NCBI GenBank assembly: GCA_043804035.1
Contig: JAZDJJ010000144.1
Span: 1 to 52,447 of the forward strand
DNA: 52,447 nt
Direction: 5' to 3'
From: Bacteroidota bacterium
GTDB taxonomy: Bacteria; Bacteroidota; Bacteroidia; Palsa-948
Of the stretch, positions 5,956 through 45,057 are shown piece after piece (within the stretch, counting starts at the first letter, position 1; the number at the start of each line of letters is the position of its first letter). Under the pieces are notes generated by a model that was given only the letters and a program-made list of their open reading frames with translations, ran no database searches and was not told the origin of the DNA. A program made the position numbers and the translations under genes.

Positions 5956-6126
5956 TAGGACTTATGCACAAATGTAAAAATATAATTAGAATACATGCCG
6001 ATTTTTCGGACTGTGCTGTGGCGTGATAGAAAAATTTACACAAAAAAAATATTTTTAGTGGTGGTTTTTTATTGATGGCGGGTCAATCCCGCCATGACGA
6101 AAGTTGTTCTTTTTGCGTAAGTCCTA
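5956..6126. repeat. 171-bp element bounded by 13-bp inverted termini TAGGACTTAYGCA / TGCGTAAGTCCTA, containing a REP-like hairpin
   Basis: Termini at 5956-5968 and 6114-6126 match 12/13 as reverse complements. Internal hairpin ATGGCGGG-tcaat-CCCGCCAT at 6076-6096 is followed by GACGAA. Confidence 0.6.
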
Positions 6127-6144
6127 TTATATTTTTGTCTATAC

Positions 6145-22048: not shown

Positions 22049-22413
22049 AAATTTTAAATTTTAAATTGTTATTACTGAATTTAAATTTGAAGTGCAACAA
22101 ACGTACATAAAATTTTTAATTACACCGAACAGAAATAGATTTTCGGATTTTTGCAAACAATCTTCCTGCATATTTTCCGAAAAATTAAATTCTTTTGAGT
22201 ATACACATAAACGGGATAAAAATCAAAAAGGGTTTATGGAAGAAATTTATGTAAAAATTTTCAATCTACTACTATCCCTGCACTGACACAAGACCCGTGT
22301 TACCGCTTGTGCTGTTTTGTCGTCTGTGTCCCAATAAATTATCCGTAAATGTTGAGTTTTAAAGTGTCTACCGAATGTGCGTTATTTATATTCCCCATTA
22401 CTGTCATCTTACT

Positions 22414-22929: not shown

Positions 22930-23152
22930 GTTATTTTATTTGAAGTTGCAAAGATACAACTTAACAATGGATATTTCTATTCTTTTTTCTTCGTTAATGG
23001 ATGAAAAAAATAAAATTTTCAATTACACATATTTTCGGCAAGTGCTCAAATACCAATATTTCGGCAAATTTCGGCTATTTCGGCAAGCTCAATAACCTGC
23101 TCAATTACCAAGCTCAATACGAGAACGGGATAAAAATTAAAAAGGATTTATA

Positions 23153-23220
23153 GATGGCGGGTCAAAGCCCGCCATGACGAACTAATGATGGAGGGTCAAA
23201 GCCCGCCATGACGAACTAAT
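23153..23220. repeat. Two tandem 34-bp REP-like units GATGG(C/A)GGGTCAAAGCCCGCCATGACGAACTAAT
   Basis: Direct reading shows one mismatch between the units. Each holds a GGCGGG/CCCGCC hairpin. They lie 24 nt downstream of the ggt stop. Confidence 0.9.
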
Positions 23221-34600: not shown

Positions 34601-34822
34601 AACTATGCACTCAATAGCACTTTGAGCCGAACAATACTTACATCGCTCACTATTTTCTTTGTATTGGCAGCGATATTTTTCTTTGGCGGTGAAGTGATTC
34701 GTTCATTTGCTTTTGCGATGCTCATTGGCATTGTCATCGGAACATATTCTTCTATCTGTATTGCCACTCCAATAGTTGTTGATTTTGGCAGAAAGAAAAA
34801 AGGTATTGCCAAAAAAGTATAG
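31694..34822 (+). CDS. secDF: Fused protein translocase subunit SecDF
   Basis: 1042 aa. SecD hallmark LGLDLKGG, two 6-TM RND-like modules, and a SecF part (GVDFKGG, INDTVIVFDRIRE). Confidence 0.95.
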   Translation: MQNKGAIRLFAILMGIACLFYLSFSWITRKVETEAKEFAVNYTIKPEIIKLAKQQTSGNAEKEKLFLDSIRTKIEYIFLDSVKKMPVDFPVYKSLFTYEDCKEHEINLGLDLKGGMNVTLEISVQDIIRNMSARPNDQKLNLALANARVMERNDKRHFAELFAEALKKIDPGASLASYFRTIELKGKVDFNTTDEKIISLIKERVDEAITTSEKTLRARIDKFGVVQPNIQKLEASGRILIELPGVNDKDRVRKLLQGTANLEFWETYDNEEIIGKLMDADKRLAEILTPLDLKDTTAVDSSKIVANDSTKLFAKNNLSKTKVDSTKKDTSSVFSKLSLNDTSKKDTKTQDTSAITKYQREHPLFFLLQPFIDQKGKTIPGPIVGRALIKDTAKVMAYLMNEKIKRVLPDNAKFAWTYKPLKGAESVTQLIALKITKRDKKAALWGDIIIDASKEFDQRQQGRPHISMIMTDEASQTWSTLTGDNVGKSVAIVLDNYVYSYPVVQQKISGGQSQITGDFTTREADDLVNILKAGKMPAPARIVEETIVGPTLGTESIQSGVNSFAIALLVVFIFMIFYYNKSGLVADIALLVNTFFIMGVLASLGAVLTLPGIAGIVLVVGMSVDANILIFERIREELRAGKGLQMAVAEGYKRAMSSILDSNITSLLLGFVLYAYGSGPVQGFATTLIIGILSSLFCSIFISRLIFEAMLARKKEISFSIPLTQNILKNVNIDFIKKRKWYYLFSGTIILIGIIFFFYRGGFTMGVDFKGGRSYYVRFENKVLTEDVGNVLRKSFGIRPEVKTFGADNQVRITTSYMIDDTSQTAETTVEEKLNRGLNSLNNKYIIMQSQKMGGTISRDLRNNAVWAILLSLVIIFFYILLRFKGWQYGLGAIVALLHDVLVVLSCFIILDGIVPFSLDINQDFIAAILTVMGYSINDTVIVFDRIREYLSQKGKSSLISGEEKNNTINYALNSTLSRTILTSLTIFFVLAAIFFFGGEVIRSFAFAMLIGIVIGTYSSICIATPIVVDFGRKKKGIAKKV

Positions 34823-35106
34823 ATTTTATTATTTTTGCCGTAACTAAAAAATAATAGTATACTAAAACATTTTCTGGCACGATTAAGAAGAAAAACAAAG
34901 TGCTATTCAAAGTCAACGGAAATGCTCAAATTTTTCTTGTTGTTATTGTTTGAAAATTGGAATAATAGGTTATCTATACTAAATTAGCAATGCCGGAACT
35001 TCAAACACATCGTAAACTTAAAACGGATTAGAGGATATAATTCCGTTAATCTGAAAAATAATTACACAATGCTTGAAATCAGAACACCAAAAGAAATTTT
35101 AGAATT

Positions 35107-35277
35107 ATGAATACCAAGACAACCACAAAAGAAAAAAACTTTGACGCTGTAAAAATAATGCGTGATATCCGGGACCAATTGAGCAAGGAAATCATGAACA
35201 TGACTTTTGCAGAGGAGAAGGCGTATTTAAAAAAGTTGTTGGCGAAAAAGATAGTAACTGCTTCGTGGGAAAAGTAG
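35107..35277 (+). CDS. 56-aa conserved-looking small protein (hypothetical)
   Basis: Hand-translated as MNTKTTTKEKNFDAVKIMRDIRDQLSKEIMNMTFAEEKAYLKKLLAKKIVTASWEK. It is below the track cut-off. The FDAVK.MR.IRD..S motif recalls small Bacteroidota proteins I have seen. The antisense 69-aa ORF in the track looks spurious. Confidence 0.4.
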   Translation: MNTKTTTKEKNFDAVKIMRDIRDQLSKEIMNMTFAEEKAYLKKLLAKKIVTASWEK

Positions 35278-35382
35278 CACGAGTGCAAACATATAGTAGG
35301 GTTTGTCGTAAAGTACTTGTATTTATGATAAAAACTGGCTTCAAATCATAAATGCAACTTTCGAGGGAAAAGACAATTTCTT

Positions 35383-35482
35383 TACTTCGGCAAGCTCAAT
35401 GCCCGAAGCTCAATTGCAATCTCAATACCAAAACGGGCTCAAAATCAAAAAGGATTTATGGTATACTGAGCTTGCCGAAGTA
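35383..35482. repeat. 100-bp element with perfect 16-bp inverted termini TACTTCGGCAAGCTCA / TGAGCTTGCCGAAGTA
   Basis: Arms at 35383-35398 and 35467-35482. The interior (…GCTCAAT…AACGGG.T.AAAAT.AAAAAGGATTTAT.G) has a paralogue at about 23085-23150 and a partial one at about 22205-22245. Confidence 0.8.
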
Positions 35483-35522
35483 TAGAAGAAAGATAAAAAA
35501 ACATTTTTACCTTTGTCGCATA

Positions 35523-35564
35523 ATGAAACTTTTCTTAAATAATTGGTGGTGGCTGTTCTCATAA
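35523..35564 (+). CDS. trpL: trp operon leader peptide MKLFLNNWWWLFS
   Basis: 13 codons with three consecutive TGG codons (35544-35552). It lies 84 nt upstream of trpE and is followed by alternative hairpins and a terminator. Confidence 0.8.
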   Translation: MKLFLNNWWWLFS

Positions 35565-35642
35565 ATAGCGAACAGCATTGTCATTATTTTAACTTAACAA
35601 TAACAAAAAGGCCTGCTGTTCTCAGTGGGCTTTTTTATTTTT
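35552..35642 (+). promoter_or_regulatory. Transcription attenuator (segments 1-4) of the trp operon
   Basis: Segment 1 is GCTGTTC (35552-58, inside the leader ORF just after WWW). Segment 2 is GAACAGCA (35570-77). Segment 3 is TGCTGTTC (35614-21). Segment 4 is CAGTGGGC (35623-30). 1:2 and 2:3 are perfect complements, and 3:4 forms the terminator. GCTGTTCTCA is directly repeated at 35552 and 35615. Confidence 0.75.
35611..35642 (+). terminator. Attenuator terminator hairpin plus T-tract
   Basis: GCCTGCTG-ttct-CAGTGGGC forms 8 bp including 2 G-U pairs, followed by TTTTTTATTTTT. It ends 5 nt before the trpE ATG. Confidence 0.7.
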
Positions 35643-35647
35643 GACAA

Positions 35648-37063
35648 ATGAAATATAAATTACATACAAATCATAAAAAATTTCTTGCCGACATTTATAC
35701 TCCGGTAGGAATTTATCTGAAACTCCGCGACAAGTTTCCGAATAGTATTTTGTTGGAGAGTTCTGATTATCATGGCAATGAGAATAGTTTTTCTTTCATC
35801 TGCTGTCAGCCAATTGCTACTATCAAAATAGAAAACGGAATAATCATAGAATCATTTCCTGATGATAAAATTGTAAAAACTCCGATTACAAAATCCATTT
35901 CCGTTTCTCAAAAACTATTTGAATTTGCATCAAGGTTTGAAATAATAAATTCTTCCACTTTGGAGAAGTTAGAAAGCAACTTTGGACTTTTTGGCTATAC
36001 TTCCTACGATGCGGTAAAATATTTTGAAGATATTGAAATCAATTCGCAAAAGAAAGAAGAAAAAGAAATTCCTGATTTGATTTATTCGGTTTACCGTTAT
36101 ACGATAGCGATAAATCATTTTAAAGATGAATTATTTTTATTTGAACATCTGATTGATGGCGAAAAATCTTCACTTGAAAATATGGAATCAATAATCAATC
36201 AACGCGAATTTGCACAGTATAAATTTTCGCTTTCAGGAGAAGAAGAATCAAGCCATTCAGATGAGGAATATATTGAAATGGTAAAAAAAGGGAAAGAGGA
36301 ATGTAAAAAGGGAAATGTTTTTCAGATTGTTTTGTCTAGGGAGTTTATGCAAAAATTCAGAGGAGATGAATTTAATTTGTATCGTGCTTTACGTTCGGTG
36401 AATCCTTCTCCATATTTATTTTATTTTGATTACGGAAATTTCAAAATCTTTGGCTCGTCTCCTGAATCGCAGTTGATAGTAAAAAATCATATCGGAACAA
36501 TTTATCCGATTGCCGGAACTTTCCACAGAACGAATGATGAGAAGCAAGATGCAAAACTTGCAAAAAAACTTCGCCATGATAAAAAAGAAAAATCCGAACA
36601 TGTGATGCTTGTTGATTTAGCAAGAAATGATTTAAGCAGAAATTGTTCAGATGTAAAAGTTGATGTGTTTGCCGAAACACAATATTACTCTCATGTGATT
36701 CATCTGGTTTCTAAAGTTTCCGGAAAGTTGAAATCAAACACAAACAGCATTCAGGTTTTTGCAAATACTTTTCCTGCTGGCACATTGAGTGGTGCGCCTA
36801 AAGTGAGAGCGATGCAGATAATTGATTTTTACGAAAATGACAGCCGCGGATATTATGGAGGATGCATTGGCTTCATCAGTTTTAACGGTAACTTTAATCA
36901 TGCAATTATCATTCGTTCATTTTTGAGTAAGAACAATAAATTATTTTACCGTGCAGGTGCGGGAGTAGTGATTGCATCAAAAGAAGAAAATGAATTGCAG
37001 GAAGTGAATAATAAACTAATGGCACTTAAATCGGCAATAGAATTGGCAAAAGAAATAATATAG
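35648..37063 (+). CDS. trpE: Anthranilate synthase component I
   Basis: 471 aa. NPSPYLFYF, TLSGAPKVRAMQII and GGCIGF motifs. Confidence 0.95.
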   Translation: MKYKLHTNHKKFLADIYTPVGIYLKLRDKFPNSILLESSDYHGNENSFSFICCQPIATIKIENGIIIESFPDDKIVKTPITKSISVSQKLFEFASRFEIINSSTLEKLESNFGLFGYTSYDAVKYFEDIEINSQKKEEKEIPDLIYSVYRYTIAINHFKDELFLFEHLIDGEKSSLENMESIINQREFAQYKFSLSGEEESSHSDEEYIEMVKKGKEECKKGNVFQIVLSREFMQKFRGDEFNLYRALRSVNPSPYLFYFDYGNFKIFGSSPESQLIVKNHIGTIYPIAGTFHRTNDEKQDAKLAKKLRHDKKEKSEHVMLVDLARNDLSRNCSDVKVDVFAETQYYSHVIHLVSKVSGKLKSNTNSIQVFANTFPAGTLSGAPKVRAMQIIDFYENDSRGYYGGCIGFISFNGNFNHAIIIRSFLSKNNKLFYRAGAGVVIASKEENELQEVNNKLMALKSAIELAKEII

Positions 37064-37091
37064 AGCAAATATTCATAACTCGCAAATTTAT

Positions 37092-37664
37092 ATGGCTATG
37101 AAAATTCTTGTTTTTGATAATTACGATTCGTTCACTTACAACCTTGTTCACTATCTTGAAAAAGTGAGCGATGCAAAAGTGGATGTAATCCGCAACGATA
37201 AAATTTCTCTTGAAGAAATAAATAAATATGACAAGATTCTTCTTTCTCCGGGACCAGGTATTCCAAGTGAAGCAGGAATTCTTTTAGATGTAATTCGCAA
37301 TTACGCTCCGAAGAAAAGCATTTTTGGTGTTTGTCTTGGTCAGCAAGCAATTGGAGAAGTTTTTGGAGGGAGATTAGTTAATCTTGATTCGGTTTATCAT
37401 GGTGTAGCAACAGAAATGGAGATAGTAAAAGATGATGTGTTGTTCAAAGGGATTCCAAAAAAATTCAAAGCCGGACGTTATCATTCATGGGTAGTTGATG
37501 AGAAAAATTTTCCAAGCGAATTAGAAATTACTGTGAAAGATAAAAATGGATATGTAATGGGATTACGTCATAAAAAATTTGATGTTCGCGGTGTGCAGTT
37601 TCATCCCGAAAGTGTTTTAACTGAACACGGATTGAAGATGATAAAGAACTGGACATCCTATTAA
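37092..37664 (+). CDS. trpG: Anthranilate synthase component II (glutamine amidotransferase)
   Basis: 190 aa. DNYDSFTYNL, catalytic GVCLGQQ, and VQFHPES. Confidence 0.95.
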   Translation: MAMKILVFDNYDSFTYNLVHYLEKVSDAKVDVIRNDKISLEEINKYDKILLSPGPGIPSEAGILLDVIRNYAPKKSIFGVCLGQQAIGEVFGGRLVNLDSVYHGVATEMEIVKDDVLFKGIPKKFKAGRYHSWVVDEKNFPSELEITVKDKNGYVMGLRHKKFDVRGVQFHPESVLTEHGLKMIKNWTSY

Positions 37665-37675
37665 TTAGCAGAGCG

Positions 37676-38656
37676 ATGAAAAACATTTTAAACATATTAT
37701 TTGAACACAAAACACTTTCTTACGAACAAGCGAAAGAAGTGCTGATAAATATTGCATCTGCGAAATATAATTTTTCGCAAGTAGCAGCATTTATGTCAGT
37801 GTTTTTGATGCGTCCAATTACTGTGGAAGAATTATCTGGTTTTAGAGATGCGATGTTGGATTTGTGTTTAAGAATTGATTTTGATACTAATGAAACCATT
37901 GACATTGTCGGGACAGGCGGTGATAAAAAAAATACTTTTAATATTTCCACGCTCTCTTGTTTTGTTGCAGCAGGAGCAGGAATAAAAATTACTAAGCATG
38001 GCAATTACGGAGTGAGTTCGGTGAGCGGGTCCTCAAATGTTTTAGAGGCAATCGGTTATAAATTCACAAATGACAAAAATATTTTACAGAAGCAATTGGA
38101 TGAAGCAGGATTATGTTTCATGCATGCACCATTGTTTCACCCTGCTATGAAAAATGTTGCACCAATTAGAAAAGAACTTGGCGTACGAACTTTTTTCAAT
38201 ATACTCGGACCAATTGTGAATCCCTGTTTTCCAAAATATCAATTGCTCGGTGTCTACAATTTAGAAATAGCTCGCTTGTACAATTATCTTTTGCAAAATA
38301 CTTTGAATGAATATGTAATTGTTTACTCATTTGATGGATATGATGAAATTTCTCTCACGGGAAATTATAAAATAATTTTAAGAGATAAAGAGCAGATTAT
38401 TGAACCGAAAATAAAACTGAAGCAGAAAGATTTGTTTGGAGGAAAATCAGTAGATGAGTCAGCAAAAATATTTATTAACATTTTGAAAGGCGAAGGAACC
38501 AAAGCGCAAAATGAAGTGGTGATGGCAAATGCAGGAATGGCAATTTATTGTGTGAAGAAAAATTCATTAAATGATTGTATTGCCGAAGCAAGAGAATCTC
38601 TTGAATCAAAAAAAGCATTTACCATTTATAAAAAACTAATTGACTCTAATTTGTAA
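37676..38656 (+). CDS. trpD: Anthranilate phosphoribosyltransferase
   Basis: 326 aa. DIVGTGGDKKNTFNIST, KHGN and FFNILGP. Confidence 0.95.
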   Translation: MKNILNILFEHKTLSYEQAKEVLINIASAKYNFSQVAAFMSVFLMRPITVEELSGFRDAMLDLCLRIDFDTNETIDIVGTGGDKKNTFNISTLSCFVAAGAGIKITKHGNYGVSSVSGSSNVLEAIGYKFTNDKNILQKQLDEAGLCFMHAPLFHPAMKNVAPIRKELGVRTFFNILGPIVNPCFPKYQLLGVYNLEIARLYNYLLQNTLNEYVIVYSFDGYDEISLTGNYKIILRDKEQIIEPKIKLKQKDLFGGKSVDESAKIFINILKGEGTKAQNEVVMANAGMAIYCVKKNSLNDCIAEARESLESKKAFTIYKKLIDSNL

Positions 38657-38667
38657 TTCATAGTACT

Positions 38668-39480
38668 ATGAACATACTTAACAAAATAATCGGGCATAAG
38701 AAAAAGGAAGTTGCTGAGAAAAAATCACTTTACCCAGTAAAACTTTTGGAAAAATCCATTTACTTCAATTCTCCGACTGTGTCGTTGAAGAAATATCTTT
38801 TGCGTAAAGATAAGGTTGGCATCATTGCAGAATTCAAACGCAAATCACCATCAAAAGGAATTATTAATCAATATACACCTATTGATCGTACTTCAATTGG
38901 ATATATGCAGGCAGGAGCAAGTGCGTTATCGGTTTTGACAGATTTTGAATTTTTTGGAGGAAAGAATAATGACTTGATTACGGCACGAAAATTTAATTAC
39001 TGCCCGATTCTCCGAAAGGATTTTATCATTGACGAATATCAAATCATTGAAGCAAAATCAATTGGTGCTGATGCGATTCTTTTATTGGCGAATGTTTTAT
39101 CTGCGAAAGAAATAAAAATATTTACGAAAATTGCAAAGTCGTTTGGAATGGATGTCTTGCTTGAAATCAAAGACAAACAGGAATTAAAATCCATAAATGA
39201 TAATGTTGATGCTATCGGTGTTAACAATCGTAATCTAAAAGATTTTTCTCTGAATGTGAAGCAATCATTTGATTTGGTGGATTTAATTCCAAATGATTTT
39301 GTAAAAATTTCTGAAAGCGGAATAGATTCAGTAAAAATAATTAATGAGTTGAAAGATGCTGGATTCAATGGATTTCTCATAGGAGAAACGTTTATGAAAC
39401 ACAGTCGTCCAGAAATTGCTTGTGCAAATTTTATTCGTTCATTACTAATAACGAATGAGCGAATTACGAATAAATCATAA
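38668..39480 (+). CDS. trpC: Indole-3-glycerol phosphate synthase
   Basis: 270 aa. IIAEFKRKSPSKG, LRKDFIID and GVNNRNL. The last ~12 codons (…LLITNERITNKS) run into heptamer-repeat-like DNA. Confidence 0.9.
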   Translation: MNILNKIIGHKKKEVAEKKSLYPVKLLEKSIYFNSPTVSLKKYLLRKDKVGIIAEFKRKSPSKGIINQYTPIDRTSIGYMQAGASALSVLTDFEFFGGKNNDLITARKFNYCPILRKDFIIDEYQIIEAKSIGADAILLLANVLSAKEIKIFTKIAKSFGMDVLLEIKDKQELKSINDNVDAIGVNNRNLKDFSLNVKQSFDLVDLIPNDFVKISESGIDSVKIINELKDAGFNGFLIGETFMKHSRPEIACANFIRSLLITNERITNKS

Positions 39481-39547
39481 CCATATCGTTCATAATAAAT
39501 TAATTCGTTCCACCAAATCGGGATTAGAAATAATAATTCATAGGATT

Positions 39548-40180
39548 ATGAAACTGAAAATTTGCGGAATGAAATATGCCGATAACATCAGAGAGGTTGC
39601 AAAACTTTCTCCCGATTTTATGGGTTTTATTTTTTATCCTTACTCAAAAAGATTTGTCGGATATAATTTTGTGATGCCTGAAATTACTTTTTCAATTAAA
39701 AAAGTCGGAGTGTTTGTAAATGATTCAATAGAAAACATTCTCAATAAAGTAAAAAAATACAAACTTGATTTTGTACAACTGCATGGAAATGAATCAGTTG
39801 AATTTTGTAAAAGAACAGGAGAGAAAGTAAAAATTATAAAAGCATTTGGTATTGATGAACAATTTAATTTTTCTGCTTTGAATGAATACGAAAACTGTTG
39901 TGAATATTTTTTGTTAGATACGAAAACAAAAGAGTATGGAGGAAGTGGAAAAAGTTTTGACAAAAATTTCTTGAAACATTATAAGTCACAAAAACCATTT
40001 TTTCTCAGCGGGGGAATTGATTTAGAAGAAGTATCAATACTCAATACTTCAAATCTGTTTGCAATTGATGTAAACAGCAAATTTGAAATCAGTCCGGGAG
40101 TGAAAGATATTAATAAATTATCTCTGCTAATTATGAATATGCAAATTACGAATAAGGATAGAACAATTCGTAATTCGTAA
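39548..40180 (+). CDS. trpF: Phosphoribosylanthranilate isomerase
   Basis: I prefer the start [10 protein letters not shown] at 39548, since the tracked 39455 start adds 31 aa read from repeat-like DNA. QLHG and FLSGGI are present. The C-terminal ~15 codons (…[16 protein letters not shown]) run through a repeat hairpin. Confidence 0.85.
40144..40175. repeat. Perfect 10-bp hairpin built from opposed heptamer-family units (AATTACGAAT / ATTCGTAATT)
   Basis: Arms at 40144-40153 and 40166-40175 with a 12-nt loop. It lies at the extreme 3' end of trpF, 23 nt before the trpB start. Confidence 0.8.
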
Positions 40181-40197
40181 AAACAAAACAATTAGAA

Positions 40198-41382
40198 ATG
40201 AAATATCAAATTGACAAAAAAGGATATTATGGCAATTTCGGTGGAGCATACATTCCTGAGATGCTCGTGCCGAATGTGGAAGAACTCAAAGAGAATTATT
40301 TGAAAATTATTTCTTCGGAAAAATTTCAGAATGAGTTTCGGGATTTGCTTCGCAATTATGCGGGCAGACCCACACCTTTATATTTCGCAAAACGATTATC
40401 TGAAAAATACAAGACAAATATTTTTCTCAAACGTGAGGACTTACTTCACACAGGCGCTCATAAAATTAACAATACGCTCGGGCAAATTCTTCTTGCAAAA
40501 AAATTAAACAAAACCAGAATTATTGCTGAAACAGGAGCAGGTCAGCACGGAGTGGCAACTGCTACGGTTTGCGCGTTGATGGGATTGGAATGCATAGTAT
40601 ATATGGGTGATGTGGATATTGAACGTCAATCTCCTAATGTATCGCGTATGAAATTACTCGGAGCAAAAGTTGTTTCTGTAAAATCAGGAAGCCAAACATT
40701 AAAAGATGCTACCAATGAAGCAATTCGCGATTGGATAAATAATCCTGTGAATACACATTATATTATCGGTTCAGTGGTTGGTCCGCATCCGTATCCCGAT
40801 ATGGTGGCGAAGTTTCAAAGTATAATTAGTGAAGAAATAAAAAAACAGTTGAGAGAAAAACTCAGAAAAGAAAATCCTGATTATATTGTTGCATGTGTGG
40901 GAGGTGGAAGTAATGCTATCGGTGCGTTCTATCATTTTTTAGATAATGAACGAGTGAAATTGATTGCAGTGGAAGCCGCAGGAAAAGGAGTAGAATCGGG
41001 GTACACTGCTGCTACGATGGTGAAAGGAAAGCCAGGAATTATTCACGGAAGCAAAACAATGTTGATGCAGAACGATGATGGACAAATTATTGAGCCATAT
41101 AGCATTTCGGCAGGATTAGATTATCCGGGAGTTGGACCTGTTCATTCGCATTTGTTTGAAACGAAACGAGTGAAGTATGTGAATGCAACTGATGATGAAG
41201 CGTTGCGGGCAGGATTTCTTCTTGCGAAATTAGAAGGAATAATTCCTGCCCTTGAAAGTGCGCACGCTTTGGCATATCTGGAAAAACTACAAGTAAAAAA
41301 AAATGATATTGTGATAGTAAATTTGTCGGGAAGAGGAGATAAAGATTTGGCAACTTATATAAAAAAATATGAGCAAAAATAA
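40198..41382 (+). CDS. trpB: Tryptophan synthase beta chain
   Basis: 394 aa. HTGAHKINN (PLP lysine) and GGGSNAIG. Confidence 0.97.
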
Positions 41383-42172
41383 AATTGATACTCTATTTAA
41401 CAAACCGCTTTCCACTTTCCGGAGAAAAGGAAATGAGATGAAGAAAAATATTTTTTCTATTTATTTTACTGCAGGTTTTCCGAATTTAAAAGACACAAAT
41501 TTGATTTTGAATGAACTGGAAAAAACCGGAGCAGATATGATTGAAATCGGAATGCCATTCTCCGACCCATTAGCAGACGGACCAATTATTCAGCACTCAA
41601 ACAAAGTTGCTCTTAAGAACGGAATGAATCTTAAACTACTTTTTAAACAACTGTCAACTGCCAACTGCCAACTACCAATTCTTTTAATGGGTTACTTAAA
41701 TCCTGTTCTGCAATTTGGTGTGAAGAGTTTTTGCAAATGCGCAAGTGAAGTGGGAGTCAGCGGAGTAATCATTCCCGATTTACCGATGGAGGAATATCTT
41801 AATGATTACAAATTTATTTTTAATAAATATGATATAAAAAATATTTTTTTGATAACTCCACAAACATCCGAAGCAAGAATAAAAATGATTGACGATAATA
41901 CCGATGGATTTATTTATTTGGTTTCTTCTGCCAGCACTACCGGCACGAATACTGAAATGAATGACGAAAAAGAAAAATATTTTTCTCGGATAAAAAAAAT
42001 GAATCTTAAAAATCCTTTGATGATTGGGTTTGGGATTTCTAATAAAAAAAGTTTTGCGAAAGCATGTGAGTATGCAAACGGAGCGATTATCGGGAGTGCG
42101 TTTATCAGAGCAATTGAAAATAATAACAACTTAAATAAAAGCATCAATCATTTTATAAAAACAATACGATGA
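41369..42172 (+). CDS. trpA: Tryptophan synthase alpha chain
   Basis: 267 aa. KIDTLF…[26 protein letters not shown] and [10 protein letters not shown]. Overlaps trpB by 14 nt. Confidence 0.9.
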
Positions 42173-43188
42173 TAATTCAATTAGAGGAAAAACTATCTAA
42201 GAAAAAGAAAGAAAATATTCTTTCTAAAATAAAATCCATTGGTTACAAACCAACTGATGTAAAAACCCAGCGGGCAGAATATTTAGTATGTATTGGGAAA
42301 AAAGAATTTGATATACGTCTCATTGGTTCCCTTGAAGGTGTTCGGGATGTTCATCGTGTTTCCGATTCATATAAACTTGTTTCTAAAAAATGGAAAGTGG
42401 GTTATTCTACAATAAATCTTGGTGATGGAATTTCCATAGGAGGTAACGGGCTGAGTATCATGGCAGGACCTTGCAGTATTGAAAGCGAAGAGCAGATAAA
42501 AAAAATCGCTGCACATCTGAAGCAGAACGGAATAAAAATTATCCGTGGAGGAGTTTTCAAACCGCGCAGTTCGCCTTATGCATTTCGTGGAATTGGAATG
42601 GAAGGATTGAAAATGGTTCACCGTATTTGCAGTGAACACGGAATAAAAATCATTACCGAAGTGATGCAAGTTTCACAAATTGAACCGATGTATGATTATG
42701 TGGATATTTATCAAGTGGGTGCGCGTAATTCACAAAATTTTAATTTATTAGATGCACTCGGCAAGATAGATAAGCCCGTTCTGCTCAAGCGCGGAATGAG
42801 TGGAACAATTGATGAACTTCTGCAATCAGCAGAATATATTTTTTCTAACGGCAACGAAAAACTTTTGCTTTGCGAACGCGGAATCCGTACTTATGAAACT
42901 GCTTATAGAAATACTTTTGATATAAATGCTATTGCTGTTTTAAAAGAAAAGACACATCTGCCCGTGATTGCTGACCCTTCACACGGAATTGGTCTGCGCG
43001 AGTTTGTGCCTCATATTGCATTGGCTGCTGCTATCGCCGGCGCTGATGGAATTATTTACGAAGTGCACGAAAAACCAGAAGAAGCAATGAGTGATGGACA
43101 ACAGACCTTGAATTTTGCGGAGAGCAATGAATTAATTAGAAGATTAAATTCCTTATTTCAGTGTTCTACGATTGAACATCAAGTTTGA
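42169..43188 (+). CDS. 3-deoxy-7-phosphoheptulonate (DAHP) synthase, type I-beta with N-terminal ferredoxin-like regulatory domain
   Basis: 339 aa. About 80 aa of N-terminal extension, then MAGPCSIES, KPRSSPYAFRG, KRG and DPSHG. Its start overlaps the trpA stop (ATGA). Confidence 0.85.
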   Translation: MIIQLEEKLSKKKKENILSKIKSIGYKPTDVKTQRAEYLVCIGKKEFDIRLIGSLEGVRDVHRVSDSYKLVSKKWKVGYSTINLGDGISIGGNGLSIMAGPCSIESEEQIKKIAAHLKQNGIKIIRGGVFKPRSSPYAFRGIGMEGLKMVHRICSEHGIKIITEVMQVSQIEPMYDYVDIYQVGARNSQNFNLLDALGKIDKPVLLKRGMSGTIDELLQSAEYIFSNGNEKLLLCERGIRTYETAYRNTFDINAIAVLKEKTHLPVIADPSHGIGLREFVPHIALAAAIAGADGIIYEVHEKPEEAMSDGQQTLNFAESNELIRRLNSLFQCSTIEHQV

Positions 43189-43402: not shown

Positions 43403-44788
43403 ATGTTCTACGATATTATCATCATCGGCTCCGGACCTGGCGGATATGTTGCCGCCATTCGTGCTTCGCAACTTGGAATGAAAACTGCCATCGTTGAACA
43501 TGCTGAACTTGGAGGCATTTGTTTGAACTGGGGATGCATTCCCACCAAAGCACTTTTGAAATCTGCACAAGTGTTTGAATATTTGAAACATGCTTCCGAC
43601 TATGGAATAAAAGTGAATGGCAGCGAAATAGATTTTGCCACAGTGATAAAACGTTCTCGCGATGTAGCAAATGGAATGAGTAAAGGTGTTGGGTTTTTGA
43701 TGAAGAAAAATAAAATTGATGTGATAAAAGGATTTGGAAAAGTGAATACAGAAAAAAAAGTTGAAGTAAAAAATGACGCAGGGGAAACAACAATATACAA
43801 TTCAAAAAATATCATCATTGCCGTTGGCGCACACGCTCGCCAACTTCCGAATATTCCATTTACAGAAGGAAAAATTATCGGCTACCGCGAAGCAATGACT
43901 CTTCCGAACCTTCCAAAGTCAATGGTGGTGGTTGGTTCAGGTGCTATAGGAAGTGAGTTTGCTTATTTCTATTCAGCAATGGGAACAAAAGTTACACTTG
44001 TAGAATTCTTACCTGCTGTTGTCCCGCTTGAAGACGAAGACATTTCAAAACAATTAGAACGTTCATTCAAAAGAATGGGAATGACTGTGATGACTTCTTC
44101 CGAAGTTATTTCTGTAGATACAAAAGATATTTGTAAAGTAAAAATAAAAACTCCCAAAGGAGAACAAACCGTAGAGTGCGATATTGTTTTTTCAGCAGTG
44201 GGAATTGCTGCCAATTTATCAAATATTGGATTGGAAGAAGTGGGCATCGCTACCGACAAAGGAAAAATTCTTACCAATCAATATTATCAAACTAATATTC
44301 CGGGATATTATGCGATTGGTGATTGTGTTGGCGGACAAGCCCTTGCACATGTTGCATCAGCAGAAGGAATTATTTGTGTTGAAAAAATTGCGGGACATAA
44401 TCCCGAACCGCTTAATTACGACAACATTCCTTGCTGCACTTACACCTTGCCTGAAATTGCTTCTGTTGGCTACACCGAAAAACAGGCGAAAGAAAAAGGA
44501 TTTGAAATTAAAGCAGGAAAGTTTCCATTCTCGGCTTCGGGTAAAGCAAGTGCAGCAGGACACAGAGATGGTTTTGTAAAAATTATTTTTGACGCCAAAG
44601 ATGAAAAAATTCTTGGCGCACACATGATTGGCTACAATGTAACCGAAATGATTGCCGAAATTGTGGTTGCTCGCAAATTAAAAACCACAGGTAACGAAAT
44701 ATTAAGAAGTGTTCATCCGCATCCAACTATGTCAGAAGCAATAATGGAAGCAACAGCAAATGCTTATGGGGAAGCGATACATTTATAA
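43403..44788 (+). CDS. lpdA: Dihydrolipoyl dehydrogenase
   Basis: 461 aa. GSGPGGY, redox-active GGICLNWGCIPTK, and HPHPTMSE. Confidence 0.95.
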   Translation: MFYDIIIIGSGPGGYVAAIRASQLGMKTAIVEHAELGGICLNWGCIPTKALLKSAQVFEYLKHASDYGIKVNGSEIDFATVIKRSRDVANGMSKGVGFLMKKNKIDVIKGFGKVNTEKKVEVKNDAGETTIYNSKNIIIAVGAHARQLPNIPFTEGKIIGYREAMTLPNLPKSMVVVGSGAIGSEFAYFYSAMGTKVTLVEFLPAVVPLEDEDISKQLERSFKRMGMTVMTSSEVISVDTKDICKVKIKTPKGEQTVECDIVFSAVGIAANLSNIGLEEVGIATDKGKILTNQYYQTNIPGYYAIGDCVGGQALAHVASAEGIICVEKIAGHNPEPLNYDNIPCCTYTLPEIASVGYTEKQAKEKGFEIKAGKFPFSASGKASAAGHRDGFVKIIFDAKDEKILGAHMIGYNVTEMIAEIVVARKLKTTGNEILRSVHPHPTMSEAIMEATANAYGEAIHL

Positions 44789-44828: not shown

Positions 44829-45057
44829 GGTTACTATTTAGAATGGTTAACAAAAAAAATTTAATTCGTCAGGAGAAAATGGAAAATAGTATGGAAGCAA
44901 TGTGAAAAAAGAAAATAAAAAAAACCACTATCCGGACATTTCAATATCTGAATTTTTCTATTTTCTAATTACTTATTTCTTTTTTCTATACCATTTTCTG
45001 TTTTCACATAACCAAATACTTGTATTGAGCTTGCCGAAATAAATGACCTAACAGTAA
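44829..45057. repeat. Copy B (inverted) of the ~230-bp mosaic repeat
   Basis: Its reverse complement aligns with 16776-17010, including the 52-nt identical core at 44948-44999. Its last ~10 nt overlap the stop and final codons of the bioF-like gene. Confidence 0.8.

Follow-up and report, generated by a model that had tools for sequence, protein, structure and literature searches.

TrpL, the leader peptide of the enterobacterial trp attenuator in Escherichia coli, is 14 amino acids long, and attenuation of this type follows from alternative pairings between successive RNA segments (1:2, 2:3 and 3:4). Trp-codon leader-peptide attenuators upstream of trpE are also known elsewhere, with experimental support cited for Corynebacterium glutamicum and Streptomyces venezuelae (PMC4833913); these actinobacterial leaders, like the one reported here, lie outside Proteobacteria, but in an unrelated phylum and in G+C-rich sequences. 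TRAP of Bacillus subtilis and T-box leaders make the same choice between terminator and antiterminator upstream of trpE, the sensor being a protein or a tRNA, respectively, as opposed to the translating ribosome proposed for the present locus; the B. subtilis TRAP site is described as eleven (G/U)AG repeats (PMC3064811).

The closest described system is Bacteroid-trp (Rfam RF01692), predicted in Bacteroidota by Weinberg et al. in 2010 (Genome Biol 11:R31), who placed it 5' of tryptophan biosynthesis genes (trpE or trpB) and proposed the same function (PMC2864571). Both that description and the Rfam model consist of the hairpin only, without antiterminator, terminator pairing or promoter. A 2019 paper placed a Bacteroid-trp element upstream of the Flavobacterium psychrophilum trp operon, citing the 2010 prediction; we found no experimental test of any member in the searchable literature.

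Here we analyze a leader upstream of trpE in a stretch of DNA of 52,447 nt (the window, taken at its full length), which is very probably a ribosome-mediated transcription attenuator of the trp operon and a divergent member of Bacteroid-trp. The element is an ordinary one of a known family, with a function that is predicted for the window and the family alike; a first-pass annotation of this DNA had implied that enterobacterial logic in Bacteroidota without Shine-Dalgarno signals was new, which it is not, given RF01692. What is added here is an explicit antiterminator, placed at the leader stop codon or overlapping it, support for the promoter call, which implies a leaderless or near-leaderless mRNA, and the finding that the Rfam seed is too narrow.

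Results

A tryptophan-codon leader ORF and three exclusive pairings upstream of trpE

The leader sequence was read directly over positions 35500-35650, and the features below were assigned (A1 and A2 are the alignments described further on).

35508-35515, + strand: -7 box TACCTTTG, matching the consensus TAnnTTTG / TAHHTTTG of sigma-ABfr (sequence and conservation)
35523-35564, + strand: leader peptide ORF MKLFLNNWWWLFS, 13 codons plus TAA (direct sequence reading, ORF list, homologues)
35544-35552, + strand: three successive Trp (TGG) codons, the putative sensing site (near-invariant or invariant columns in A1 and A2)
35537-35558, + strand: segment 1, the 5' strand of the 1:2 hairpin, which holds the Trp codons (MFE and centroid structures; matches the conserved hairpin of RF01692)
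35570-35589, + strand: segment 2, able to form the 1:2 hairpin or, by way of GAACAGCA (35570-77) and GUC (35580-82), the antiterminator with the 5' arm and loop of the terminator
35605-35636, + strand: predicted intrinsic terminator hairpin, segments 3 and 4 (terminator scan, energy, compensatory changes)
35614-35621, + strand: core of segment 3, UGCUGUUC (DNA TGCTGTTC), the partner of segment 2
35631-35642, + strand: terminator T-tract TTTTTTATTTTT (direct sequence reading and terminator scan)

The mini-ORF runs from an ATG at 35523 to a TAA at 35562-64 (ATG AAA CTT TTC TTA AAT AAT TGG TGG TGG CTG TTC TCA TAA), so that the 13 codons and the three Trp codons reported in the first-pass annotation are present at the same coordinates. 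TGGTGGTGG occurs 2 times in the 52-kb window against 0.05 expected; the other copy, at 43923, is out of frame within a 461-aa ORF and was set aside.

The pairing segments were then compared. GCTGTTC (35552-58) and GAACAGC (35570-76) are perfectly complementary, and GAACAGCA (35570-77) is complementary to TGCTGTTC (35614-21), giving an 8-bp 2:3 antiterminator; both complementarities had been claimed before and are present at the positions given. The 1:2 helix exists as well, although the 7 bp first ascribed to it were too few: 20 pairs join 35537-58 to 35570-89 (-12.5 kcal/mol) and span all three Trp codons. Likewise, a hairpin and a T-tract do lie just ahead of the trpE ATG as described, but with a longer stem than first drawn, since A-U pairs extend it to 14 pairs (35605-18 / 35623-36; loop TTCT at 35619-22; G+C-rich core 35610-18 / 35623-31). 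This hairpin, GCCTGCTG/CAGTGGGC, contains two G-U pairs, reads GGCCTGCTG-TTCT-CAGTGGGC in the DNA, ends 11 nt ahead of the trpE ATG (35648) and was the only terminator-like site found within 34800-36000.

The terminator (3:4) has a predicted energy of -17.8 kcal/mol, of which the G+C-rich core alone gives -13.5, compared to -9.0 kcal/mol for the antiterminator (2:3), or -11.7 with the additional pairing GUC(35580-82):GGC(35610-12). The antiterminator occupies 11 nt of the terminator 5' arm and loop and, as in E. coli, is less stable than the terminator. An exact 10-nt direct repeat, GCTGTTCTCA, is found at 35552-61 in segment 1 and at 35615-24 in segment 3, as expected if both segments must pair with the same segment 2. 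Folding, a check proposed with the initial reading, placed the 1:2 hairpin in the minimum-energy structure, and the 128-nt leader folded at -32.3 kcal/mol compared to -20.3 ± 2.7 for shuffled sequences (z = -4.4), with 0 of 200 shuffles as good.

The leader scores as a divergent relative of Bacteroid-trp

At the gathering threshold, an Rfam search returned no match in the leader region, the cut-off of RF01692 being 49 bits. When the search was made permissive, the best match was to RF01692, "Bacteroidete tryptophan peptide leader RNA," at 40.3 bits (E = 0.0023 in a 451-nt search), with model positions 1-131, i.e., its full length, aligned to 35501-35617. The consensus stem of the model falls on 35537-58 / 35570-89, with four non-standard pairs flagged by cmscan. 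Apart from the score, the locus has the makeup of this family: it lies 5' of a Bacteroidota trpE and contains an ORF with consecutive UGG codons, a loosely conserved hairpin that encloses them and an intrinsic terminator thereafter. Placement in Bacteroidota is evident by the nearest TrpE relatives, which are Bacteroidia/Bacteroidota at up to 72% identity, and by the Bacteroidota-type -7 box.

When the 20 loci closest to the window were scored against RF01692, six exceeded the cut-off, at 61-68 bits, all of them from Flavobacteriaceae; none of the 12 nearest (L001-L012) did. With the window and all 12 of its closest relatives below the cut-off, the RF01692 seed appears too narrow, and because the gene context is orthologous and intermediate sequences are continuous, we read the low score as limited seed diversity and not as non-homology. 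The enterobacterial Trp_leader model RF00513 gave 24.6 bits (E = 0.0086; cut-off, 41 bits), a weak match driven mostly by the terminator, and the leader is not a member of that family.

The leader reading frame is conserved among relatives

A scan with the TrpE protein, limited to one genome per species, returned 80 loci, all from Bacteroidota and with 57-72% identity, 79 of which could be evaluated for the upstream sequence (L062 is truncated). A WW or WWW mini-ORF lies upstream of trpE in 78 of these 79, in genomes assigned to Flavobacteriales, Cytophagales-like, Chitinophaga-labelled and Bacteroidia lineages; the exception, L004, is without a leader, and one relative starts its leader with TTG. 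Each mini-ORF is followed after 20-53 nt by a terminator hairpin of -12 to -23 kcal/mol and a T-run. The comparison of relatives that had been suggested with the initial reading thus bears it out, in that the WW(W) mini-ORF recurs and the terminator stem covaries (see below).

The mini-ORF is also the 3' end of a same-frame 70-aa ORF (35352-35564) in the ORF list, which might suggest that it is part of a real gene of that length, if not, together with the hairpins, a chance feature of an AT-rich spacer. The probability of either is negligible. The fold z-score of -4.4 speaks against chance, and the conservation of the arrangement in 78 of 79 loci already refutes it; a Pfam search with the 70-aa ORF found no match, its span includes the conserved promoter box, and in relatives the short ATG is the start. 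This longer ORF is spurious and, as had been noted, hides the mini-ORF in the ORF track.

We also considered whether the conserved leader RNA could respond to tryptophan independently of translation, through a TRAP-like protein, uncharged tRNA or a ligand, with the UGG run as a structural or binding element. The run does sit inside a conserved hairpin, and its conservation could therefore be structural. An ATG-initiated open frame passes through the TGG run in the Trp frame of 78 of 79 loci, however, compared to 1 and 5 loci for the other two frames, which is direct evidence for selection on the reading frame, beyond the RNA alone. Moreover, no T-box or other riboswitch family matched in the permissive Rfam search even at E ≤ 10, and the leader has one UAG and no GAG, hence nothing like the repeat array of a TRAP site. 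Sensing by such a route is most unlikely.

Outside N-N-(T)-W-W-W, a stretch that also forms segment 1, the leader peptide is poorly conserved among relatives. This bears on the idea that the main product acts in trans, as the terminated RNA or the 13-aa peptide, with cis control of trpE being secondary. A terminated RNA of ~120 nt is the predicted default product, and rnTrpL/peTrpL in Sinorhizobium, from another phylum, provide a precedent (PMC6614838, PMC7298713). The poor conservation of the peptide nevertheless counts against it, as does the position of the element, which in every case adjoins trpE on its 5' side or has no more than an inserted small ORF in between. A main role in trans is thus very improbable, while trans action as such is compatible with attenuation.

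Pairing partners differ between clades while the pairings are maintained

Two alignments were used: A1, a MAFFT alignment of 78 leaders, and A2, a 15-sequence alignment of the subfamily to which the window belongs. RNAalifold on A1 recovered the terminator alone; the leaders vary too much in length between Trp codons and terminator to be aligned by sequence alone, and the 1:2 and 2:3 pairings were therefore tested on A2. Compensatory changes were found at 7 of the 10 predicted terminator pairs in A1 and at 6 of 14 in A2. On A2, 85.5% of terminator cells are paired, and the covariation score of 0.35, against 0.19, was reached by 0 of 500 shuffles. For the 1:2 helix, 70% of cells are paired compared to 36-58% in slid registers, and four pairs change on both sides. 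For 2:3, the corresponding values are 80% and 33-64%; variation here is mostly one-sided (G-C/G-U/A-U), with one two-sided pair and a covariation score of 0.21 against 0.19. The 2:3 pairing is conserved in these sequences, and its covariation support is weak.

Across the family, the stretch between Trp codons and terminator is complementary to the apical part of the terminator of its own locus (mean z of -2.2 compared to shuffles; p ≤ 0.05 in 51 of 79), and the complementary stretch sits at or over the leader stop codon. The register is specific to the clade. G(A/U)GAAC... has the 5' arm and a GUUC(U/A)C loop as its partner in the window and its relatives, whereas the conserved GUCGUGA of Flavobacteriaceae, which contains the Ser and stop codons, pairs with UCACGAC in the loop and upper 3' arm, with weaker pairing to the 5' arm. 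The leaders of Flavobacteriaceae (L013-L080) end in UCG UGA inside GUCGUGA (A1 columns 101-110 and 175-192), and the terminating ribosome would there sit directly on the antiterminator; in the window, the stop codon lies in the 1:2 hairpin loop, 5 nt before the antiterminator core, and three codons follow the Trp run compared to 5-9 in most Flavobacteriaceae members. In Bacteroidales-labelled L050, the three partners have all changed in concert (ACCGUGA, GGCUUACC and UCACGGUAAGCC).

A first test for the antiterminator, which considered the 5' arm and loop only and compared the total fold energy with shuffles, gave no signal in Flavobacteriaceae (median z, -0.35); this is accounted for by the duplex test, in which segment 2 of this clade paired chiefly with the terminator loop and the upper end of the 3' arm. 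A swap test that set segment 2 against foreign terminators was noisy, with the diagonal as row minimum in 4 of 16 groups, and displayed specificity solely between the window-like GUUC(U/A)C and the Flavobacteriaceae UUGUC..UCACGAC terminator types.

In relatives, the leader usually lies 70-180 nt from trpE (~460-510 nt in three loci, owing to the inserted GIY-YIG-like ORF described below), and the gap between terminator end and trpE, 11 nt in the window, is mostly 14-30 nt. Initiation in Bacteroidota depends on unstructured A-rich leaders. With the stem this close to the trpE AUG, the hairpin and T-tract might thus act mainly on trpE translation, leader translation modulating access to the start, and tuning of initiation by mRNA secondary structure is reported for Flavobacterium (PMC6847099). 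The hairpin has, however, every feature of an intrinsic terminator, i.e., a G+C-rich stem and an uninterrupted T-run, and its distance to trpE is 140-410 nt in some relatives, which makes occlusion impossible there. Such an account of the element is highly unlikely, and an effect on trpE translation would at most be a layer added to transcription attenuation.

A conserved promoter box close to the leader start codon

The initial reading included a -7 box upstream of the leader and a nearly leaderless mRNA, and the promoter call was then described as weak; the relatives now strengthen both points, since the box is near-invariant and the gap that follows is short. Of the 79 loci, 72 have an exact TAnnTTTG in the 29 nt that precede the leader start codon, and in A1 conservation of the TTTG columns reaches 90% or more. 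The window has 7 nt between box and ATG; in 41 of these 72 loci the gap measures 4-9 nt, among them 24 with 5 nt. The 5-nt gap belongs mostly to Flagellimonas and its relatives, but short ones are also seen in Gillisia, Zunongwangia, Winogradskyella and the clade of the window itself.

Transcripts of Flavobacterium johnsoniae start 4-5 nt past the -7 box, and their leaders exceed 10 nt in 87% of cases (PMC6847099); in Bacteroides thetaiotaomicron, 5' UTRs of less than 10 nt make up only ~3.7% of the total (PMC7366714). Applying the F. johnsoniae spacing to the window predicts a start at ~35520-35521 and a 5' UTR of 2-3 nt, and by the same spacing the leader mRNA of many relatives would be truly leaderless. 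Whether the leader-peptide mRNA is leaderless or nearly so, with a 5' UTR of 0-4 nt across the window and the short-gap relatives, is in our estimate an even bet. We found no description of a leaderless start for the Bacteroid-trp family in the literature. If it holds, Trp attenuation in many Bacteroidota that lack Shine-Dalgarno signals relies on initiation at a 5'-terminal AUG, and the first ribosome would load once the 5' end leaves the polymerase, which would synchronize lead ribosome and RNA polymerase without a Shine-Dalgarno sequence.

A second -7-like box, TATTTTTG, lies at 35636-43, at the end of the T-tract and 4 nt before the trpE ATG, and could in principle yield a leaderless trpE transcript independent of attenuation. 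No box of this type was present at the same position in any of the relatives examined, and it is therefore probably a by-product of the T-tract.

Position of the ribosome and the predicted choice of structure

The effect of a translating ribosome on these pairings was modeled codon by codon: a footprint reaching from 15 nt upstream of the A-site codon to 11-14 nt downstream of the first base of that codon was set on the transcript, which was folded as far as the terminator loop. The antiterminator is the minimum-energy fold when W1, W2 or W3 occupies the A site; when the stop codon does, it weakens to -2.9 kcal/mol or vanishes. The constrained folds thus reveal mutually exclusive 1:2, 2:3 and 3:4 pairings and a stop codon position from which segment 2 is masked, as in ribosome-mediated attenuators. 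For transcripts that end at 35621-25 and carry no ribosome, 1:2 (-13.2 kcal/mol) is slightly disfavored at equilibrium relative to 2:3 with a small hairpin (-15.7 to -16.8 kcal/mol), and termination without translation would accordingly hinge on kinetics, i.e., on 1:2 forming first.

We infer the following sequence of events. Transcription would begin a few nucleotides before the leader AUG, and a ribosome would translate the 13-codon leader as RNA polymerase proceeds. When charged tRNA-Trp is abundant, the ribosome should reach the UAA at 35562 and mask the start of segment 2 (35570-77), the antiterminator would not form, and the hairpin at 35605-36 with its U-tract would stop transcription 11 nt short of trpE. 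Under a shortage of charged tRNA-Trp, the ribosome would stall at the three UGG codons (35544-52), covering segment 1 and leaving segment 2 free to pair with the emerging 35610-12 and 35614-21, the top of the terminator 5' arm and the loop; the antiterminator would then block the terminator and permit read-through into trpEGDCFBA and the DAHP synthase gene. In the absence of a ribosome, the 1:2 hairpin would form first and sequester segment 2, favoring termination. The 1:2 / 2:3 / 3:4 logic claimed in the first-pass annotation is thus upheld by the anatomy of the leader, its geometry, the downstream trp operon and conservation.

This arrangement shares its pairing logic with enterobacterial trpL and has a leader of comparable size, with 13 codons, three of them between the Trp run and the stop. 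Unlike trpL, it has three Trp codons instead of two and no Shine-Dalgarno sequence, its promoter is of the sigma-ABfr type and lies 7 nt before the AUG, making the leader mRNA probably nearly leaderless, and its terminator ends just 11 nt before trpE. To our knowledge, coupling between lead ribosome and RNA polymerase has not been demonstrated in Bacteroidota. Bacteroid-trp provides a natural case for studying ribosome-polymerase coupling in a phylum without Shine-Dalgarno pairing and for asking whether coupling can start from a 5'-terminal AUG; tractable relatives include Flavobacterium johnsoniae and a Flagellimonas strain with the 5-nt spacing.

The downstream operon

The genes that the leader would control were identified by NCBIfam matches.

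35648-43188, + strand: putative regulated operon, trpE to DAHP synthase (NCBIfam matches)
35648-37063, + strand: trpE, 471-aa ORF (413 bits to TIGR00564, under the equivalog cut-off but unambiguous)
37092-37664, + strand: trpG (above the curated cut-off, subfamily model)
37676-38656, + strand: trpD (above the curated NCBIfam cut-off)
38668-39480, + strand: trpC (above the curated NCBIfam cut-off)
39455-40180, + strand: trpF (160 bits to NF002298, under the equivalog cut-off but unambiguous)
40198-41382, + strand: trpB (above the curated NCBIfam cut-off)
41369-42172, + strand: trpA (above the curated NCBIfam cut-off)
42169-43188, + strand: DAHP synthase, 3-deoxy-7-phosphoheptulonate synthase (413 bits to NF006421, above the curated cut-off)

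The start of the DAHP synthase gene overlaps the trpA stop codon, and this gene is probably the last of the attenuated operon, which would put the entry to the common aromatic pathway under Trp-specific control. Upstream, secDF ends at 34822 and leaves a 700-nt spacer to the trp leader. The trp operon of an uncultured Bacteroidota lineage thus has an attenuator that standard Rfam annotation misses by 9 bits, and the 78 loci collected here could broaden RF01692 and add the terminator and antiterminator to the model.

Other features of the window and its relatives

The secDF-trp leader spacer contains a 56-aa ORF, MNTKTTTKEKNFDAVKIMRDIRDQLSKEIMNMTFAEEKAYLKKLLAKKIVTASWEK (35107-35277), for which a Pfam search found no match. 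The window also carries a dispersed intergenic repeat of ~90 nt, TTCGGCAAGCTCAAT...CTCAATAC..AAACGGG.T.AAAAT.AAAAAGGATTTAT, with copies at 35378-35487, 23060-23151, 22209-22237 and, on the minus strand, 45026-45039, i.e., at least three or four compared to 0-0.2 expected. The copy just upstream of the trp leader promoter is bracketed by a 21-nt inverted repeat (35378-98 / 35467-87; 95% complementary), and the repeat could be a MITE-like element or a small RNA. Directly after another copy, tandem palindromic units GATGGCGGGTCAAAGCCCGCCATGACGAA occur at 23153-23181 and 23187-23215, and a hairpin similar to these units, GATGGCGGGTCAATCCCGCCATGACGAA (~6110-6135), follows a short ORF at 5995-6075; both look REP-like. 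That ORF, which encodes LVVV and adjoins the repeat hairpin, came up when the whole window was scanned for other short ORFs with amino acid runs and a terminator, a scan that returned nothing convincing. In three Flavobacteriaceae relatives (L026, L057 and L072), a small GIY-YIG-like ORF (…IYIGYTNDLKKRMYRHK…), flanked by a TTCCGC…GCGGAAA hairpin, lies between terminator and trpE in a spacer of ~380-410 nt and resembles a mobile insertion into this spacer. A tRNA gene at 2514-2601 is the sole Rfam match at the gathering threshold in the whole window.
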